Below, piece after piece: positions 3,347 through 19,005 of a stretch of DNA of 64,000 bases. Source of the DNA: a virus; IMG/VR virus record IMGVR_UViG_3300020731_000774, positions 13,734-77,733 of that record; one strand, given 5' to 3'. The first letter of the stretch is position 1, and each line of letters opens with the position of its first letter. A program made the translations under genes and the position numbers. The notes under the pieces are model-generated. The model was not told the DNA's origin and made no database searches. It worked only from the letters and a program-made list of their open reading frames with translations.

Positions 3347-5209
3347 TTAATTTTTAAGTATTACTGGTGTTGCTGATGGTTCTTGGCTCAATGTTGGTGC
3401 AAATGTACCAACTGATGTTAATTGTGCCACAATTGATTTACCATCATCACTTAAATTTTTAACATATATTAAAAATTCATTGTTATCCTTATCCTTAACT
3501 CTATAAATATCACTAATAGTGTAAATGCTATTTGGTAGTACTGGTGTTGGTGCTGGATTTTCATTTACTTTTGCATTTTTATCAGGATCTTTAGTTTCTA
3601 ATTTTTCATTTGCATTTATTTCAGCTGGTGTTTTACCTAATTCTTTTCTAACTAAGCGAACTTCTTGATAAAAATGTGTACCATCAAATATAAAAGATAT
3701 ATCTGCTATTATCCAATCTCCACTATTTCGCCATTCAATACGTTCACGATTTGTTATTGAATTCTCAGCATTTATTACCTTTACGTTTACCTTTTGGAAT
3801 TTATATAAATTAAAGTTTGTATTTGGTAATATTATTTTTAGTTCTAATTTTTGTAAATCTATTAAATTGCGTCTATTTTGTGTATAAGCATATGTGTAAT
3901 TACTATGTGTATTATCAGTATCTATTTTACCATTATTTTGTGTTGTGTAGCTATTTTCAAAATCTTCCTTATCCATCTTACTACCTTTTAATATGATGGT
4001 TTTATTATCATCAGATGTTTGAGAATCTACATCAAATACCTCAAAAGTTTTATTTAATCTATTATATGATTTTGTTATTGTCCTATTACCAACAGCTTTA
4101 GTGACAGCAGTTGCATTATTTTTTAATTTTTTATCACTTTCAAAATAGAATGCACTTTTATTCATTGATTCTTCATTTATTAATTGTAGTTTAACAATCT
4201 TTGATATATCATCTTTTTGATCTACACCAGTTTCTATACCAACATCAGATGTATTATCTCTTTTACTTTCTTTCTCAACATCAACATAATTAAAACAATA
4301 ATAGAAATCAATATATCCAACCATAAATGATTTATCAGATATATATGAGTAATTTATAATCTCTGTTATAGTCTCAAATGTTTTACTACCATTGAAACGC
4401 CAAACCATAGTATCATTTGTGGAAGTTATATTTGAATTAAAACCAAGACCCATATCTTTACTGATTTGTCTCAAAACTTCAAATGACGATCCTTTCATAC
4501 TACCATTATATAAACGATATAAATTAGATACATCCAATGTACCAATCACATTATACAATCCACCATTTACTTCTTTGAAGTTTTCTACTTTGAATTTTAA
4601 GTGTATAGATTTTAAACTATTTGATCTTGCATTAATAAATAAATCAAATTTAGTATCTGCTTGTGGAGCACCTATTGTTTTAATAAAATTTTGGGAATCA
4701 ACAAAACTAAATCTAACCTTAGGGACTATTCCCTCATGGTATAATTTTAAATTTAAAATATCTCTATCCTGTATAGGATTTCCAGACCAACTAATGAAAG
4801 GCAACATACCAACACTTGATGTAACCAATGTATTTGTTTGATCATTATCATCCTTTTGTATTTGTATTGGTGGTATCTTAATAGTTGGTATGTCAATTTG
4901 TGCTATTATTGGCCTTGTCCCACTTATATTGGTATTATCATCCTTGCCTCTTGATTCATCCTGACCTATTATTGTAGGTGCTGGTGTAACAGTTATTTTA
5001 AATTGTGTTGGTTCAACATCAGGTGAAGTACTTGTAACTGATACTACATAATCACCTGGTTGGTCAAATTGAATACCAGATACTACTACAGCATTAGGTA
5101 TTTTATCACCTATAACTATTTCGGTTTCACCTATTAATTCACCAGGTCCACTTACTTTTTTGAGTATTAGTTTACCGGATATTGTTGATGGATCTATTGT
5201 TGTTGCCAT
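3347..5209 (-). CDS. Putative baseplate hub/tail protein (gp27/GpD-like)
   Basis: 620 aa, late motif upstream, C-terminal SGDWIIADISF..FYQEVRLVRKEL like hub proteins; upstream of lysozyme and gp5. Confidence 0.45.
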   Translation of the reverse strand: MATTIDPSTISGKLILKKVSGPGELIGETEIVIGDKIPNAVVVSGIQFDQPGDYVVSVTSTSPDVEPTQFKITVTPAPTIIGQDESRGKDDNTNISGTRPIIAQIDIPTIKIPPIQIQKDDNDQTNTLVTSSVGMLPFISWSGNPIQDRDILNLKLYHEGIVPKVRFSFVDSQNFIKTIGAPQADTKFDLFINARSNSLKSIHLKFKVENFKEVNGGLYNVIGTLDVSNLYRLYNGSMKGSSFEVLRQISKDMGLGFNSNITSTNDTMVWRFNGSKTFETITEIINYSYISDKSFMVGYIDFYYCFNYVDVEKESKRDNTSDVGIETGVDQKDDISKIVKLQLINEESMNKSAFYFESDKKLKNNATAVTKAVGNRTITKSYNRLNKTFEVFDVDSQTSDDNKTIILKGSKMDKEDFENSYTTQNNGKIDTDNTHSNYTYAYTQNRRNLIDLQKLELKIILPNTNFNLYKFQKVNVKVINAENSITNRERIEWRNSGDWIIADISFIFDGTHFYQEVRLVRKELGKTPAEINANEKLETKDPDKNAKVNENPAPTPVLPNSIYTISDIYRVKDKDNNEFLIYVKNLSDDGKSIVAQLTSVGTFAPTLSQEPSATPVILKN

Positions 5210-5244
5210 AGTATTTTAATTTTAATAATTTATATATTAAAACC

Positions 5245-5433
5245 TTAATTTTCCGATAAGATATTGTTTATTTTTTTATCCCTGAAATCAATAATTATTT
5301 CTTTATTTAAAATATCAACCAAACTAACATCATCATTATTTGATAAAATATTAAAAATGTTTTCACAAGTATAATCAGTTACAATATTTTTATATACTAT
5401 AAAACCATTTTCATTTATAATTAAATCACTCAT
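5245..5433 (-). CDS. Small hypothetical protein with C-terminal RDxKIxxIL motif
   Basis: 62 aa, ATGA overlap with upstream uvsW fragment; ends FRDKKINNILSEN. Confidence 0.55.
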   Translation of the reverse strand: MSDLIINENGFIVYKNIVTDYTCENIFNILSNNDDVSLVDILNKEIIIDFRDKKINNILSEN

Positions 5434-5769
5434 AAATTTAATTTCAATATTTTAAATGGATATTTTCGTTTCACATAAAATCCCTCCCTCTCTTTATAAT
5501 GTCTAAATAGTGCATTGGTCATATCATTCGGATCAAATATATCTACTAAGTCAAAAATAGTTGCTTTATCCTTTAAAAAATGGAGCCTTAAGGACCTCCC
5601 CACACTTTGGATAATTATCTGCTCACTCTTAAATGAATCTGCGAATATTACGTTAAATATTGCATTTATTGACACACCTGTTGATAATGTACCGTCAATA
5701 TGAGGCAACTAAAACTTTAGTTGCCCCTTCTTCTCTAATTTCTTCTCTTTTGTCTATTATTCTAGCCAT
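5430..5769 (-). CDS. uvsW: UvsW-like SF2 helicase, C-terminal fragment (motifs V-VI); needs recoding at 5694-5697
   Basis: ATG 5769 (TAATG overlap with HNH stop) reads MARIIDKREEIREEGATKVLVASY-TGA-C, then GTLSTGVSI...QSVGRSLR in the +1 frame; joined it gives the helicase motif VASYGTLSTG. Confidence 0.8.
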
Positions 5770-6728
5770 TAGTATTTTATTGTTTTTATTATAGAATCTA
5801 ATAAAATATAATTATTTTCATTTAAATGATTTATTGAAACTTTATTATCAGTGTCTCTATATTTTCTTATTAGATGAGTGCTGAATTTATATTTTTTAAC
5901 TATATCCTCCATATTTTCAAAAACTTCAACATCTCCGTTATTTTTTATTATTTCTATTTTTAATCCATTTCGCTTTTTGCGATTTTTCATTTTTTCTAAA
6001 TAATCAGGATCTTCCCATTTCTTCTTTATCTTAATACCGGCATCAATTCTTTTAGTTTCATCTTTGTTTATTTTATCCATTTTTTCTTTAAAGTTTAGTC
6101 GGTATTCTTCATTCATACTATCCCATCTATCTTGTGTTTCTTTTCTTTTCTTTTCAACATTTTCAAAATTAGAATAATATTCGCTCATTTGTTTAGATTT
6201 CTCTATTCGTTTATCTTCGGTCCAATAACTTTTCATTTTATTACAAAAATCTATATACTCATCATCTGATATATTATCCCAAAAAATATTAGCTCTCCTT
6301 GTTTGTTCTTCTTTAGATATATTTTTCATAAACTCAGATCTACTTTTTCTCCAATTATTATATTTCTCTGTATCATTTTTTAAGTTGATCCATCCTTTTT
6401 TAGCAGCATTTGATGTTTCATAACTATTTTTATAATAATTCATCATCCAGTTTAATGGTCTTTGATAAGTTCTTATATTTATCGCTTTAAATAACCAAAG
6501 ATGTACTAAACGATGACTATCATAGTCTAGTTCAATAATATTCCAATATTCGTTTTCAAACTCAGGAAAAGTAGATCTTGGTAATATGTGGTGTTTTTCA
6601 GAATATTCTACACTTTCTGATATTTTATAATTGATTAAAAAGTTAATATATTTATCTAAGTATTCTGAATTATCAACACTTTCATGTCTTTTTATTAAAG
6701 CATCTTTTAAAAAATTATAATCTCTCAT
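5769..6728 (-). mobile_element. Free-standing HNH homing endonuclease inserted in uvsW
   Basis: EKHHILPRS..NIIEL..SHRLVH HNH motif, Trp/Lys-rich repeats, lies between the two helicase halves, TAATATATA 4 nt upstream. Confidence 0.85.
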
Positions 6729-6772
6729 AATGTATATATTATATTAATACTTACTCCTGTTGAAAAAGTATA

Positions 6773-8215
6773 TTATTTTTTTAGTTTTTCTAAAAAATCA
6801 TCATCAATATCATCATCTTTATTAATATCCTTTGCTAATTTATATTTACCATTAGATAATAATATTTGGGTATCTGATTTAACATCTATTTGGAAATTAC
6901 CAAAATTTAGAATTGTATATTCAACACTTTCTTTGGTTATTTCCATTAGTTTTTTAATTTCTTCTCTTTTTTTACCACTTACTTCACCATCTATATAATA
7001 GAACTCTTTATCTGTTATTTCACTTTTCAATTTATTGAATATTTTTTGACCATTTTCAATAGTATGAAAAAGTAGTAGAGTATTATTATTACATTTATTA
7101 ACTAAATTTTTGATAAATTCTAATCTTTTATCAGATTGGTGAATGTATGCTTTTTCAAAATCAAATGCTGCTTTACCATCTCCGCTTTTCCTGACCAATT
7201 TTAATCTTTCATGGAACTCTTTATCATTATGGTTAAGTAATAAAACTTTTATATCCATTGGTGTTATAATTCCTTTCTTTTTTAATTCATCTGCACTAAC
7301 TTCGGTTATTTTCGGACCAAGTACTGATTGTATTGTTAGTATTTCGCAACTATCATCAAGTGGGAATGTTCCAGATACACCAAATCTAGAATAGGCATGT
7401 CCAAATGTATTTTCCAATATTGTTGTTATGGTCTTTGCTTTAGCACCATGTGATTCGTCAACTGCTATTGTATGGAATTGTTGAAAGAATTTTTTAGGCC
7501 ATTTTTCAAGTGATTGATAAGTACCTATATAAATATTTGGGTTATCAGCACCTGAAAACTTTCTTGGTTTATCAGACATAACTTCTTCTATTCGTATAGT
7601 ATTATCTATATTTGATTTATCTTGTAAGTTATTTTCACCATAATAATATTCTAAAAAATTATCATAAAATTGTGTCACTAAGGTAATTGAGGGAACGATT
7701 ACGAGAAATTTAGCATCTTTTTTAATGTTTTTTAGAGTATAAAAAGCAACTATTGATATGATCAATGATTTACCACCAGAAGTAGCAACCTCTGCCATAC
7801 AAAAGCGATTTTTTAATATTTTATATGCTGCTTCAATTTGATGATCATAAGGCATGAATGAATTCCAACCACCTTCTTTATTTTTAACTTTATGATTTTT
7901 AAAAAAATCTTTACAGAAGTCTTGAACTTTTTCAAGTGTTACATCACGATTAATTGGAAAGTCTTCTTTATTTTCTAGAAGAAAAGGCATTTCAATTTCT
8001 TTACATCCTCTCATAGCTTCTTTCCATAGACCTAGATTTATTCTACCATTTTTGAAATGTGGAATATTCCCATCCCATATACCAGCTTTAACTAAAGGAT
8101 GATATTTCCAACCCTTTGGTTTTCTAGTAAGCCAAAGTTCCATTTGGAAATATTCAGTCCTAGTTGCCTCTGATACAACTAGTTCCTCTTTCTCTTTATC
8201 ATATCTAAATTTCAT
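6773..8215 (-). CDS. uvsW: UvsW-like SF2 helicase, N-terminal fragment (motifs I-IV)
   Basis: Q motif PYDHQ, Walker A ATSGGKS, DESH, SGT, LLLFH, YIDGEV; lacks motifs V-VI; ends in a ~50-aa non-helicase tail. Confidence 0.9.
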   Translation of the reverse strand: MKFRYDKEKEELVVSEATRTEYFQMELWLTRKPKGWKYHPLVKAGIWDGNIPHFKNGRINLGLWKEAMRGCKEIEMPFLLENKEDFPINRDVTLEKVQDFCKDFFKNHKVKNKEGGWNSFMPYDHQIEAAYKILKNRFCMAEVATSGGKSLIISIVAFYTLKNIKKDAKFLVIVPSITLVTQFYDNFLEYYYGENNLQDKSNIDNTIRIEEVMSDKPRKFSGADNPNIYIGTYQSLEKWPKKFFQQFHTIAVDESHGAKAKTITTILENTFGHAYSRFGVSGTFPLDDSCEILTIQSVLGPKITEVSADELKKKGIITPMDIKVLLLNHNDKEFHERLKLVRKSGDGKAAFDFEKAYIHQSDKRLEFIKNLVNKCNNNTLLLFHTIENGQKIFNKLKSEITDKEFYYIDGEVSGKKREEIKKLMEITKESVEYTILNFGNFQIDVKSDTQILLSNGKYKLAKDINKDDDIDDDFLEKLKK

Positions 8216-8221
8216 TTCATG

Positions 8222-8248
8222 TTATATATAAAAAATAAATAAATGTTT
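8222..8248 (-). promoter_or_regulatory. Putative middle promoter AAAC-N17-ATATAA (uvsW)
   Basis: Same bipartite motif upstream of polB, clamp, gp47-like and other genes. Confidence 0.55.
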
Positions 8249-8336
8249 ATTTAAATAAAAAAATATTATTTTTTGCTGGTTTTTTATAGAGGGAAGAAGA
8301 AAAAAGATATATATACATAAAAAATATTTAAAAATT

Positions 8337-8699
8337 ATGGGATTTATATCATGGCTTAAAGATCTTTTCAAAAGAGAGCATGAAGTACAAGCAGAAGTTA
8401 AAACTATTGCTGAGGAAGTTAAAACGGTTACAGATGAAGCTAAACCAGTTGTTGAAGATGTAAAAGTAGTTATTGACAAAGTTGAAAAAACTATCAATGA
8501 AGAACCAACTGAAAAAATTGTTGAAAGATTAGTTGAGGTTGCTAAGGATGAAAAAGTTACAGCTAAAGAAATTAAGGCTAAGGCTAAAAGAACTCCTAAA
8601 CCAAAAACTGAAACACCTACTGAGGTTGCACCTGAGGCTAAAACAGCTCCAAAAAAACCACGTAGAAAACCATCACCAAAAAAACCAAAAGGTGAATAA
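8337..8699 (+). CDS. Lys/Glu/Pro-rich low-complexity protein with basic histone-like tail
   Basis: N-terminal amphipathic MGFISWLKDLF, C-terminal APKKPRRKPSPKKPK; followed by a terminator. Confidence 0.65.
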   Translation: MGFISWLKDLFKREHEVQAEVKTIAEEVKTVTDEAKPVVEDVKVVIDKVEKTINEEPTEKIVERLVEVAKDEKVTAKEIKAKAKRTPKPKTETPTEVAPEAKTAPKKPRRKPSPKKPKGE

Positions 8700-9472: not shown

Positions 9473-10453
9473 TTAGAATGTTCCGAATTCGGCTTTTATT
9501 AATTCTGCTAATTCAAGTCCTATACGATCTTGTGCTTCTAATGTAGCAGCACCAATATGTGGTGTTACAGCTATTTTAGGATGATATAAAAGATCATTAT
9601 TTGGATTTGGCTCATCTTCAAATACATCTAATGCAGCTGCTGCTACCTGTCCATTTTCTAATGCTACCAATAAATCATCTTCATTTACTACACCACCTCT
9701 AGAGGCATTTACAATTCTAACACCTTTTTTCATTAGATTGAATTCTCGTTCATTAATAACAGAATCACCATTTTCTTGTTTTGGTATATGAACTGAAATA
9801 TAATCACATTTAGGTAGTAATTCATCAATACTAGTAGTTGTTTTAATATTTATACCTACTTGATTAGATACATCCTGTCCTTCAGATGTTGTCCAAGGTA
9901 AGTTTAAATAAACTGTTTCTGTTTTTTCTTCAATATCAACTGCTAATACTCTCATACCCATACCAATAGCATAACTTGCTAACGATTGACCAATTCTACC
10001 AAATCCAATTATACCTAATGTTTTGCCTCTTAATTCTATTCCACTTGCATAATATTTCTTCAAATAGTCAAAATCTTTTTTATTCATCTGTCTAGATGAA
10101 TCATATAATGATCTAGATATGGAAAACATTTGACCAATTACCAATTCCGCTACGGATTGTGAACTAGATGCGGGTGTATTAATTACTTTAATTCCTCTTT
10201 CTCTTGCATATGATACTGATATATTATCCATACCAACACCACCTCTACCGATTAATTTTAGATTAGGACAACCATCAATAATATCTTCTCTTATTTTTGT
10301 TGCACTTCTAACAAGAACTATTTCATAGTTTTCTTCATTAATTTTATTAATAAGATCTTTTTGATCTACTTTTTCAGTTACTACAGTGTAACCAGCATTT
10401 TCTAATGCTAATTTACCTTCATCTGAAATACCATCGTTTGCTAATATTTTCAT
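9473..10453 (-). CDS. serA: D-3-phosphoglycerate / D-2-hydroxyacid dehydrogenase (short form, no ACT domain)
   Basis: VRSATK, GRGGVGMDNI, Rossmann GIIGFGRIG, NASRG, DVFEDEP, TPHIGAAT. Confidence 0.85.
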   Translation of the reverse strand: MKILANDGISDEGKLALENAGYTVVTEKVDQKDLINKINEENYEIVLVRSATKIREDIIDGCPNLKLIGRGGVGMDNISVSYARERGIKVINTPASSSQSVAELVIGQMFSISRSLYDSSRQMNKKDFDYLKKYYASGIELRGKTLGIIGFGRIGQSLASYAIGMGMRVLAVDIEEKTETVYLNLPWTTSEGQDVSNQVGINIKTTTSIDELLPKCDYISVHIPKQENGDSVINEREFNLMKKGVRIVNASRGGVVNEDDLLVALENGQVAAAALDVFEDEPNPNNDLLYHPKIAVTPHIGAATLEAQDRIGLELAELIKAEFGTF

Positions 10454-16338: not shown

Positions 16339-17805
16339 AGAAACCTTTCCAAATCCACCAAATATATCCTGTATAACTGATAATCTTTCTGTAATTTCTG
16401 GCATACCCAATGGTTCAATAATTGTATTGATTGGTGATAAAATAGATTTAGCAAATTGTATATCATAATCTATTTCAGGTGCTACCTCAATAGGTAATGA
16501 TCCCCTAATATAGGCAAATATATCACCATTTTTCTTATTCTTACAATAATAATACTTAATCTTTGTCCCAGACTTAATAAATTCATATCGTGTTTGTAAC
16601 TCCTTATTCTGTTTCAATAAATAATTATGATATGCACTTGCTTTAACTGCAAAGTGAGCACCATTAACAAACTTTAATGGCAATGAATTATCATCAATTA
16701 CCTTAGTATCATAATTAGAACAAGATGATTGCATTGAAATATCATCAATATCAGCTAACTCAAATTCCTTTCTAAGATTCTTAACCAATTTTAATAAGTC
16801 CTTTATGTTAAAGGTATCAGAATTCTCAAATAAATATTTAACAATTGTGATAATCTTTTCCCTTGCAAATAAAGGTGTGGAAGATCTTACCAATTCAACT
16901 CCCTTTGGAAATAAATATGTTAACCTATCGTAATTTATACCATCCTCAAATGAAACATGTTGAATATATTTCTTTTTTGCCAAACTGATAACCGATTCTG
17001 ATATACGTTCTAACTCAAAATCTTGTCTGTTCTCAACACCATATAAATCACCATAATCTACTAAACACTTTTTAAAATATCCACCATATCTGAAATGGTC
17101 TATACCTTGGATATAATCCAATTCTTTACACCAATTCCATTTAGGTTTAACCGTTAATGCACCATTATTTATTAAATCATTTAAACCATAATCCTTAACA
17201 AATACACCATCAATTAAAACCAAATCATATTCTAATGTTAATAACTTCTCAAATTCATCAACAGTTTTAGAAATACCTAAACAATTTGGATTATTAAAAC
17301 TTGGAAGTTCATTTGATAAAATGATAAATTTCTTACCAATGGAATTTAACATATTCGTGTTGAATATTAAATTCTTCCATTCTGAATGTCGAATTGCTGG
17401 TTCAAATGACACAAAAAGAGAATCTGTGTCCGCGTAAATACTTACATTTTCATCCTCATTAATTTTACTAACATTTTTTATACATAAATTCTTATGTAAT
17501 TCAACATCTAGATGCCATTGATTGTGCCAATAATCTTTATTAACCTTATCCATTGTTTGTGTAAGCTGCCTACCTTGTGCAGTTATACTTCCAGCAACCG
17601 CATTATTATATAATACGAAGTAGGAAGCTGCCATCGCTCCGTAAGAACCGTTCAATACTAATTTTAGTCTTTTACCCCCAATACATTGTATTGGGGGCTA
17701 CAAAAGAGCGAGCTGAAGGGCATTGTAATAGTCTGCCTCCTTCTTTAGCTCGCTCGCTTGTTTTTTTAAAGACTCGATCTTTAATTTTTTTTCTTCTCTA
17801 GTCAT
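16330..17805 (-). CDS. Family B DNA polymerase, C-terminal subunit of a split enzyme (gp43B-like), with a 39-nt stop-containing insert in motif B
   Basis: ATG 17805 reads MTREEKKLKIESLKKQASELKKEADYYNALQLAL[L*PPIQCIGGKRL]KLVLNGSYG; then ITAQGR, YADTDS, KKKY, KGVELVRSSTP; about 478 aa if the insert is skipped. Confidence 0.88.
17665..17755 (-). other. Candidate ribosomal bypass element: 5' stem-loop, UAG, 10-bp GC hairpin
   Basis: GAGCGAGCU/AGCUCGCUC stem (17706-17755), TAG at 17698-17700, CCCCCAAUAC-AAU-GUAUUGGGGG (17675-17697). Confidence 0.65.
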
Positions 17806-17810
17806 ATATA

Positions 17811-17837
17811 TTATATCAGAAATAATCAAATTAGTTT
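17811..17837 (-). promoter_or_regulatory. Putative middle promoter AAAC-N17-ATATAA (polB)
   Basis: Exact motif 5 nt upstream of ATG 17805, which supports that start. Confidence 0.55.
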
Positions 17838-17886: not shown

Positions 17887-19005
17887 ATGATTAAAGAATA
17901 TAAGATTTTAATGAAGATAAATTATAGAAATGTATCACATTTTAGAAATTTAGGATATGAAATAGAAAATGGTGTTAAGGAAATGTATATTTCAGTTTGT
18001 GATTTGTTCCAGGGCTCAAATGTTAAGGTAACTGCGGTATGTGAAATATGTAGTTCTGAAAATATAATAAATTATAGTAAGTATTTAGTTAATTTTAATA
18101 GGAATGGTAAAAACTATTATTCTTGTTTTAAATGTAAAAATATTGAGAAAGAGAAAACATGTATGGAAAAATATGGTGTTAAATCATATTCAATGACAGA
18201 TGAATTTAGAGAAACAGAAAGTTTAAAATGGAAAGGCATTAAGAAAGGTGGTGATAAGGGTGAGAAAACTATGTTAGAGAGATATGGTGTAAGATCTTAT
18301 TTTGAAACGCAGGAAAGTAAGGACTATAATAGAAAGTGGATGTCATCTGATGAGTTTAGAAATAAAAGTAAGGATACATTGATAGAGAAATATGGAGTAG
18401 ATTCATATTCAAAAACTGATGAATTTAAAAATAGAATGGCCGAACAAAATGAAGTTTCAAAGGAAAAGTCAAAATCTACATTTTTGGAGAGATATGGTGT
18501 TGAGTGGTATACTCAATGTGAGGAATATAGGAATACTTGTATTGAAAAGAAAGATGAGACTATCTTAAAAAATAAGGAAACATGTATGGAAAGATATGGA
18601 GTTGATAATGTTAGTAAAGTTCCTGAAGTACAACAATCTATGAAAAATACTAAAATAGAAAGAGGATCTATACTACCTGATCATTTATTAAGTGAGTGGG
18701 AAATATATAAAAAGAATGTTAGACGAATAACTAATAAATTTGAAAAAGAATTATATGAAAACTGGGATGGAATTGATCATTATGATGGTGAGAATATAAA
18801 GGGATATTTTTCACATACTCATACACATCGTTTCTATCCGACAATAGATCATAAAAATTCAGTTTATTATGGATTTTTAAATAACATTGATCCAAGTGAA
18901 ATTGGTTCTATTGAAAATTTATGTATAACTAAAAGATATATAAATTCTACCAAATCCAGGATGATAGAGAAAGAATTCTTAGAAAAGTTAAAAAACCAAT
19001 CCTAA
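17887..19005 (+). mobile_element. Free-standing HNH endonuclease, divergent from polB
   Basis: CEIC/CFKC Zn motif, five (K/R)YGV repeats, C-terminal TIDHK..ENLCIT..INSTK HNH/HNN core. Confidence 0.75.

Follow-up and report, generated by a model that had tools for sequence, protein, structure and literature searches.

The window, that is, the whole 64,000-nucleotide stretch of DNA analysed, is part of a 77.7-kb viral contig whose closest database relatives are uncultured phages of 634-642 kb, and the stretch was found in freshwater or lake metagenome runs from many studies, with no RNA run among those listed for it. A helicase locus on its minus strand comprises three elements, namely a helicase ORF (ORF1), an HNH ORF and a small C-terminal ORF, with the following features:

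8215-6773, minus strand: UvsW-like SF2 helicase ORF (N-terminal piece plus tail), 480 aa
6926-8215, minus strand: host-derived N-terminal piece of the UvsW-like helicase, motifs I-IV, collinear with the uninterrupted homologs L001-L003
6773-6925, minus strand: cassette-encoded C-terminal extension of ORF1, about 50 aa, plus the stop codon (VEYTILNFG..KSD..ILLSNG..DDIDD..)
5769-6728, minus strand: free-standing HNH homing endonuclease, assigned to the T4 Mob family, 319 aa, stop in range
5698-5769, minus strand: leader (N-terminal extension) of the C-terminal piece, 24 codons, its ATG overlapping the HNH stop
5700-5729, minus strand: hairpin with an 11-bp core (5727-5717 with 5712-5702) and loop AGUU, extendable to 13 bp
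5698-5700, minus strand: proposed take-off codon UAU (Tyr), Tyr in 41 of 41 gap-class sequences
5694-5697, minus strand: coding gap TGAC, made of the UGA stop at 5697-5695 and C at 5694
5696-5694, minus strand: candidate landing codon GAC, the last three bases of the gap
5430-5693, minus strand: host-derived C-terminal part of the helicase, 87 codons plus stop, motifs V and VI (QSxGRxxR)
5706-5708, minus strand: TTG in the +1 frame, start of a gene-caller ORF of 92 aa, rejected as a general start

The N-terminal helicase piece matches Pfam ResIII/DEAD (3e-16) and the PHROG DNA helicase profile (5e-53), and the C-terminal part matches PHROG DNA helicase (7e-24) and, weakly, Pfam Helicase_C. The spacing between ORF1 and the HNH gene is only about 45 nt, and the HNH stop and the start of the C-terminal piece share the bases TAATG, with the ATG at 5769-5767. 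From this ATG, the 24 leader codons read MARIIDKREEIREEGATKVLVASY and end in KVLVASY. The final TAT (5700-5698) is followed by TGA (5697-5695) and an extra C (5694), after which GGT ACA TTA starts at 5693 in the +1 frame and continues as GTLSTGVSINAIF... for 87 codons up to a stop codon at 5432-5430. The product of the C-terminal piece would be 111 aa long if the gap is skipped and 112 aa long if it is read by a +1 shift. A further weak hairpin is predicted from the GGU, at 5693-5671.

The tail of ORF1 is present in every cassette-bearing locus, with 22 invariant columns among 20 sequences, and is absent from the uninterrupted homologs. Profile searches of the tail against PDB sequences and Pfam returned no Hint, intein or other family (best PDB hit E ~1, to Rad52), and we dropped a split-intein or Hint-like identity on these insignificant hits. 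By eye, the tail also resembles motifs V/VI (KSD..ILLSNG against KSEQIIIQSIG); we set aside the idea of a decayed copy, as the tail is strongly conserved as a protein across cassettes. For the HNH protein, we obtained matches to PHROG 12434 (HNH endonuclease, 2e-14) and PHROG 655 (homing endonuclease, 6e-10), tblastn matches to MobD-like and MobE genes of T4-like phages (E ~2e-8), and a match of the core HHILPRS to the T4 mobA remnant (E 0.018 in a small database), while Pfam gave nothing at E 0.01. On these matches the protein is best assigned to the Mob family; orthology to MobA itself would go beyond them. The end of the leader, KVLVASY, stands in for the host segment KVL(V/I)AS(Y/F) that was deleted at insertion. 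Across 37 gap-class loci the leader has a dN/dS of 0.09 at a median dS of 0.82, and the full-length HNH proteins are 50-68% identical to that of the window; because of this divergence, we consider the arrangement to be old.

We compared the junction with uninterrupted homologs (L001, L002, L003 and 44 distinct viral loci), in which the helicase is a single ORF of 524-586 aa with KVL(V/I)AS(Y/F)GTLSTG and the reading AS(Y/F)GTLSTG holds no extra base. The window therefore carries exactly 4 extra nucleotides, TGAC, and its first 20 bases past the gap are those of L001. Contigs from independent freshwater runs span the junction without any indel. In a further run, a strain variant keeps the 4-nt gap with an unchanged leader, and its 9 changes just 3′ of the gap all fall at third-codon positions of the +1 frame. 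Since independent contigs show the gap free of indels and 41 distinct relatives are gapped at the same junction, it is not an assembly error. The gap is genuine and widespread in relatives; in the phage collection, all the relatives found were uninterrupted. An earlier note on this DNA had described the coupling of ATG 5769 to the HNH stop through TAATG, the reading KVLVASY-UGA-C-GGU with an excess of 4 nt, and a hairpin at 5727-5702 with loop AGUU ending 4 bases short of the UGA. All of these were recovered on the minus strand, the hairpin as part of the predicted minimum-energy structure; the alignment with uninterrupted homologs that the note had proposed bore out the extra nucleotides, and the bases at 5694-5697, which it had suggested checking for an assembly error, are the same four in the independent contigs.

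The relatives were gathered by way of the leader-junction peptide and by scanning metagenomes for a degenerate pattern placed on leader codons 17-24 only, and a scan of viral contigs with a leader-start pattern contributed one extra cassette, L186. This yielded 42 distinct cassette sequences from viral and metagenome contigs, 41 of them gapped, with gaps of the following kinds:

4 nt, 8 sequences: TGAC (six), TAAC, CAAC
6 nt, 1 sequence: TAGTAA (L010)
7 nt, 27 sequences: TGAG followed by TAC, TAT, GAC, GAT, AAC or TAG; TAAGGAC
9 nt, 1 sequence: TGAGGCTAA (L144; TGA-GGC-TAA)
10 nt, 2 sequences: TGAGGTTAAC, TGAGGTTTAT
17 nt, 2 sequences: L079, L130

A stop codon opens 39 of the 41 gaps, and it is TGA in 36 of those; the long ORFs of the window end in TAA (31), TAG (3) and TGA (3). 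Gaps without an initial stop begin with the rare codon CCC (1.8 per 1000) or with CAA followed by CGG (0 per 16,419 codons). The codon 5′ of the gap encodes Tyr in all 41 sequences even though the search pattern admitted Phe as well, compared with 25 Tyr and 15 Phe at the same position of ungapped in-frame leaders (Fisher p 5e-6 against the gapped ones) and 22 Tyr and 24 Phe in uninterrupted genes. The codon before GGN has A as its middle base throughout (UAC/UAU in 13 sequences, UAA/UAG in 6, GAC/GAU/AAC in 22). The putative take-off and landing codons match in full (UAY to UAY) in 13 of 41, and the rest match at 2 of 3 positions. The protein database added 174 short C-terminal fragments. They include 40 clusters of 111-113 aa in which GTLSTG continues the leader in frame, about 48 clusters of 92-94 aa that start with (M/L)P(H/L).. 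and are +1-frame read-outs of gapped junctions, and one cluster, P0104, with an in-frame insert of two residues (ASYQYGTL). The ungapped cassette class is thus seen as 40 protein clusters, and at the DNA level only as L009/L163.

A hairpin of 11-13 bp abuts the Tyr codon in all the gapped relatives and shows compensatory changes. In the window its arms are GGGGCAACUAA and UUAGUUGCCUC (5727-5702), and the 106-nt stretch around it has a z-score of -2.6. Leader nucleotides 43-53 pair with nucleotides 58-68 in 39 of the 42 sequences, and two more pairs are possible, reaching the U of the Tyr codon. Under the 13-bp model, 97.1% of cells in the 42 sequences are paired, against 37-57% in controls with slid partners, and 23 cells have changed on both sides, a number reached by none of 500 shuffles. 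In the metagenome subset, leader nucleotides 49-53, 58-62, 64-65 and 67-68 were fixed by the search pattern, and because of this only the 5′ arm and two positions of the 3′ arm are unbiased. One pattern-free pair, joining two synonymous third positions, is GC in 14, AU in 7, GU in 6 and UA in 5 of 32 distinct rows, with 0 mismatches. Codon 16, also outside the pattern, encodes Ala or Val, as the stem needs, in 41 of 41 gapped leaders and is variable in 40 ungapped ones. The median minimum free energy over 45 nt is -18.3 kcal/mol in cassettes and -4.9 kcal/mol in 44 uninterrupted genes (p 3e-15). The rare codon GGG is used in the hairpin. In both 17-nt gaps (L079 and L130), the predicted helix runs over the Tyr codon into the gap, and in L130 a CGG Arg codon, seen in 0 of 16,419 window codons, pairs with the gap. 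This pattern, with its covariation, shows a hairpin that is maintained and is specific to cassettes as compared with uninterrupted genes. Its specificity to gapped cassettes draws mostly on protein-level comparison, because one ungapped cassette is known as DNA; that cassette, L009, has the weakest helix (-8.5).

The 87-codon downstream frame is unbroken in all 37-38 complete gap-class loci, and its dN/dS is 0.16 overall. About 16 of these loci have a full-length HNH gene, several have a truncated one and about 14 show a clean deletion, which makes it lost or truncated in about half; after deletion, the ORF1 stop is separated from the leader ATG by 11-250 nt. In L007, as in the strain variant, sequence identity breaks off right at the gap, and the cassette is often far less diverged than its flank. 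The break indicates that cassettes move between hosts, and therefore some of the downstream conservation predates invasion. Because recent homing could explain much of that conservation, we base the argument for selection on loci in which the HNH gene is missing or decayed. Between L096, which keeps an HNH remnant, and L127/L159, which have no HNH, the C-terminal part shows 3 nonsynonymous and 20-21 synonymous changes (omega 0.03), and the gaps themselves differ (TAAC vs TGAGTAC). A close pair, L093 and L130, is separated by 1 nonsynonymous and 9 synonymous changes, while the gap measures 4 nt in the former and 17 nt in the latter. Neutral decay of the downstream ORF, which had been named as an outcome that would speak against recoding, is not what these values (omega 0.03-0.16) describe. 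They indicate purifying selection, and the downstream frame appears to be still functional.

An HNH cassette has split the UvsW-like helicase at motif V, and we consider it likely, from these comparisons, that ribosomes hop over the gap it left. A mobile cassette, made up of the ORF1 tail of about 50 aa, the Mob-type HNH gene, the 24-codon leader and a short non-coding gap, has inserted into the gene of the UvsW-like helicase of a freshwater huge phage, within motif V. Translation of the C-terminal piece would begin at the ATG of the leader, which is coupled to the stop of the HNH gene, and would pause after 24 codons with UAU occupied by peptidyl-tRNA-Tyr and the A site facing a poor stop, UGA. 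At that point the 3′ arm of the 11-13 bp hairpin would still lie inside the ribosome; the hairpin may then re-form behind it and pull the mRNA forward. The tRNA-Tyr would re-pair on the codon 5′ of GGU, GAC in the window, with 2 of 3 pairs, and decoding would restart at GGU to give a 111-aa subunit with a wild-type motif V. The junction peptide expected from such a hop is ...VLVASYGTLSTGVSINAIFNVIFADSFK; a +1 shift would give the same with D (or ED, EY) after Y. For the window, a shift to ASY-D-GTL (112 aa) would be an equally possible result of the same pause. The two helicase pieces would assemble, by analogy with other genes split by homing endonucleases. The gap is probably kept as immunity, since it breaks the endonuclease target that the host-like leader would otherwise recreate, again by analogy, here with T4 MobA/gene 60. 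Recoding at this site, either by +1 shift or by stop-hop and yielding 111-112 aa with motifs V and VI, was what the earlier note had put forward, and the conserved gap, stop and Tyr codon and the covarying hairpin speak in its favor. Its comparison with prfB has fared less well, since AUU offers tRNA-Tyr no +1 re-pairing, a Shine-Dalgarno sequence is missing at the prfB spacing, and the relatives mostly have UGA-G.

The hop is favored across the family because 6 of the 41 sequences (5 of the 16 gap types, in at least five lineages) are not decodable by any +1 shift. In L010 (TAG TAA) and L144 (TGA GGC TAA) the gaps are in frame and hold two stops each; L079 and L130 have gaps of 3n+2; and in L086 and L117 (TGAG-TAG) a UAG is met in the +1 frame. 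All six have UAA or UAG immediately 5′ of GGN, and this frame is therefore closed to any upstream shift, while the same codon could still serve as a P-site landing codon with 2 of 3 pairs. L086 and L117 are diverged from each other, so the state with UAG before GGN has persisted. The only single mechanism that would read every member is for peptidyl-tRNA-Tyr to slide forward onto the codon before GGN. A programmed +1 frameshift at UAY-UGA, of the prfB or antizyme type, in which the leftover gap bases add 1-3 residues, seems unlikely to account for the family. It can claim 35 of the 41 gaps, which are 3n+1 with an open +1 frame and include all those ending in GAC, GAU or AAC, as well as the weak UGA-C context of the window, the stop as a slow A-site codon, and the ASYQYGTL insert of P0104, which suggests that small inserts may be tolerated here. 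On the other hand, the downstream frames of the six undecodable sequences are intact and conserved, tRNA-Tyr would have no re-pairing on AUU or ACU, and no Shine-Dalgarno sequence lies at the prfB spacing. The extra residues, which fall within motif V, would vary (D, N, ED, EY, EN, EVN), and the strict Tyr and the UA- or -AY landing codons would be left unexplained. Landing codons GAC, GAU and AAC, about half of all, have a first-position mismatch to tRNA-Tyr. Among gap types with these endings, 0 of 8 depart from 3n+1, compared with 4 of 8 of the UA-ended types (p 0.08), and because the +1 frame is open across all of these gaps, each of them 3n+1 in length, a +1 shift may be what some members of the family use, the window among them.

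We regard it as improbable that no recoding takes place, with the gap being a scar or an immunity lesion, the leader peptide simply ending, and the downstream frame a pseudogene or re-initiated, for example, at TTG 5708. Gene callers do give ORFs of 92-94 aa from this TTG, and as cassettes cross between diverged hosts, intact downstream frames could partly reflect recent invasion. The TTG, however, is present in only 19 of 41 sequences, and we rejected it as a real start on that count; it also lies inside the 3′ arm of the hairpin. A +1-frame TAG stands at leader nucleotides 59-61 in 41 of 41, the sequences lacking the TTG have no start at all from there to GGN, and the in-frame double-stop gaps provide none. 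None of the 37-38 downstream frames is broken in spite of HNH loss or truncation at about half of the loci, nor does the omega of 0.03 between HNH-less lineages fit a pseudogene. Without recoding, there would be no role for the TGA preference, the Tyr codon or the conserved hairpin, and a working helicase is unlikely to result when a 24-aa peptide has one part of motif V and an 87-aa fragment the other. It is hardly credible that the gap is lost before translation, through splicing, editing, transcriptional slippage or a DNA variant, or that a group I intron or split intein makes up the cassette. It is common for phage homing endonucleases to reside within introns or inteins, the tail of ORF1 is superficially like an intein block, and L079 has a split-intein-like insertion elsewhere in the same gene. 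Yet Rfam gave no match, including none to a group I intron core, for 5000-8500 at E up to 10, the spacing between ORF1 and HNH is about 45 nt, and the leader is under protein-coding selection. The tail has no Cys or Ser nucleophile, its first residue being Asp or Glu, and the leader ends in Tyr with no terminal Asn. As for slippage or a DNA variant, there is no homopolymer run and no indel variation in contigs from four runs. Two further routes were also set aside: a hop from UAU onto the UAC that lies in frame 9 nt further on would remain in frame 0 and meet a stop soon after, and a suppressor or quadruplet-decoding tRNA has no tRNA gene in the window to supply it and could not read the gaps that end in UAG or UAA.

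The reading that we prefer, a ribosome hop over the cassette-borne gap, has its closest parallel in the MobA element of T4-like phages, which carries an HNH endonuclease, a conserved in-frame C-terminal extension of ORF1, and an ORF2 whose N-terminal extension ends in a segment homologous to the deleted host sequence (Manning and Atkins, 2022, bioRxiv 10.1101/2022.08.31.505936). Its bypass cassette begins at a stop or hungry codon and finishes at the landing codon, and the endonuclease is often lost with the bypass retained (10.1101/2022.08.31.505936). The T4 gene 60/MobA mobile bypass cassette was also treated by Bonocora et al. (2011), as cited in that paper. Here too, a free-standing Mob-family HNH gene splits an essential replication gene, and the ORF1 tail and the KVLVASY leader end would be the counterparts of what are called CTE and HomR in the MobA element. 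The gap likewise opens with a stop, or in rare cases a sense or hungry codon, and would close at a landing codon; it often outlasts the endonuclease gene, which has then decayed or been deleted, and ungapped split forms exist. The architecture thus seems to match the MobA element part for part, with new variation in the gene, the gap length and the place of the hairpin. MobA elements are found in topoisomerase genes only, with gaps of 50 nt or, in one clade, 20 nt, and their take-off stem-loop is conserved and the 5′ stem-loop poorly so (10.1101/2022.08.31.505936). In contrast, the host gene here is a UvsW-like SF2 helicase of freshwater huge phages instead of the large subunit of topoisomerase II, the gaps are 4-17 nt against 50 nt (the shortest known being 20 nt), the proposed take-off codon is Tyr instead of Gly or Asp, and the leader has 24 aa against about 45. 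There is no take-off stem-loop within the gap, because 4-10 nt cannot hold one, and the conserved hairpin lies upstream instead, abutting the take-off codon. The mini Shine-Dalgarno sequence 5-7 nt before the landing codon is also absent, the GAG or GAGG of the gaps directly abutting the landing codon. Pairing of the exiting mRNA has been argued to drive forward bypassing (Wills, Parsawar and Atkins, 10.1101/2024.12.09.627546), and the helix described here, with its extension in the 17-nt gaps, is consistent with that model. The pulling force would be small, because a move of 4 nt lets only a few apical A-U-rich pairs form outside the ribosome.

Common to this site and prfB (RF2) are the UGA stop that occupies the A site (UGA-C in the window) and frames related by +1. 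The prfB shift relies on slippery CUU-U re-pairing, a Shine-Dalgarno element 3 nt upstream and the weak stop context UGA-C. Here, the corresponding bases are UAU-U or UAC-U, a G-rich run is first met about 24 nt upstream, in the 5′ arm of the hairpin, the relatives mostly have UGA-G, and several gaps are not 3n+1. Stop-hopping in E. coli is unprogrammed and inefficient, at about 1%. As in the short-distance tRNA hopping and stop-hopping of Weiss et al. (1987) and O'Connor et al. (1989), peptidyl-tRNA would quit a codon beside a slow or stop codon and re-pair a few bases downstream, independently of frame, but in the present case a natural essential gene conserves both a fixed take-off codon and a dedicated hairpin that covaries. 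In nrdA/mobE of Aeromonas phage Aeh1, a homing endonuclease leaves the gene in pieces (Friedrich et al.); there too a Mob-type endonuclease makes two ORFs whose products are expected to assemble, whereas that case has neither a coding gap nor a recoding signal. In the literature searched, we found no description of a split UvsW with a coding gap.

A second candidate for the same device lies in the window. A C-terminal piece of PolB reads ...YYNALQLALL and is followed by TAG and a perfect GC-rich hairpin, after which motif B resumes as LKLVLNGSYGAM; many PolB relatives have a stop and a hairpin with a covarying stem at the same site, and others read straight through. A broader proposal, on which we are evenly divided, is that the 24-codon leader, the hairpin at the Tyr codon and the stop form a minimal, portable bypass element that would allow a hop of 4-17 nt without a take-off hairpin in the gap, the distance being set by the reach of the helix behind the ribosome, and, taken with the PolB gap, that homing endonuclease cassettes of huge phages routinely carry skippable immunity gaps.

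In the bypassing literature examined, programmed translational bypassing is described in yeast mitochondria and, among bacterial viruses, in a single gene family, that of T4 gene 60 with its topoisomerase homologs. If true, the present case would be a second bypass family, large and natural, with about 40 sequence variants in a different gene, gaps of 4-17 nt and a tightly conserved upstream hairpin. The gap variants would amount to a ready-made mutational series bearing on the disputed idea that pairing of the mRNA at the ribosome exit drives forward movement, and the whole signal, at about 90 nt, is easily placed in reporters. There is also a consequence for annotation, as gene callers show such genes as broken, with 92-aa fragments from a spurious TTG, and replication genes of huge phages that resemble pseudogenes may be intact. 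Were the minimal-element reading to hold, programmed bypassing would be a common device, beyond the curiosity of a single gene.

Codon usage is extremely AT-biased in all the long ORFs of the window, where CGG is used 0 times in 16,419 codons and the stop codons are TAA (31), TAG (3) and TGA (3); no tRNA genes were found in the 64-kb window. In L130, one of the two related loci in which the coding gap of the helicase gene is 17 nt long, a CGG codon, otherwise unused, would serve to extend the hairpin of the leader, the first codons of the helicase C-terminal piece. We predicted this structure in both such loci:

L130:601-695, predicted leader hairpin region
L079:3031-3125, predicted leader hairpin region

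The leader hairpin is predicted to reach into the gap in both (2/2), forming in L130 an extended stem of ~18 bp (MFE −41 kcal/mol, z −6.5) and pairing GGG with CCC in the extension of L079. In the window itself, a further hairpin was predicted at the resume codon:

5671-5693, minus strand, predicted weak 8-bp hairpin with many G-U pairs

Its first base lies exactly at the resume codon GGU, a location reminiscent of the barrier to forward slippage in T4 gene 60.

Two of the related helicase loci carry additional insertions:

L079:252-2986, further interruption, in the helicase N-terminal piece
L006:3201-4004, extra 267-aa ORF between the helicase N-terminal piece and the HNH gene

The former resembles a split intein, with a 290-aa ORF in between; one N-terminal fragment has a block-B-like end (...ITGNHKV...) and the following one starts with MKINKIEKIKYDGDVYNL...NHNYFADGLCVSN. 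The L006 ORF ends in a motif V remnant (...NGTLTTGVSVNFIYRI), suggesting that insertions are nested at a single hot spot.

One ORF lies near the replication genes:

9473-10453, minus strand, 326-aa ORF

Judged by eye, its product looks like a D-3-phosphoglycerate/2-hydroxyacid dehydrogenase, and the putative enzyme is possibly encoded by an auxiliary metabolic gene.

Finally, the window holds a second gapped gene, PolB:

17655-17829, minus strand, gap region of the PolB C-terminal piece
17887-19005, plus strand, HNH ORF near the gap

The piece reads ...YYNALQLALL before a TAG, 3′ of which lies a perfect hairpin (CCCCCAAUAC...GUAUUGGGGG), and PolB motif B picks up again 3′ of the hairpin (LKLVLNGSYGAM). 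At this site, a stop and a GC-rich hairpin with a covarying stem and a variable loop recur in many related viral loci; in others PolB is uninterrupted there. The likeness to T4 gene 60 is closer than for the helicase gap, and the PolB gaps make up a second family of coding gaps within this phage lineage.
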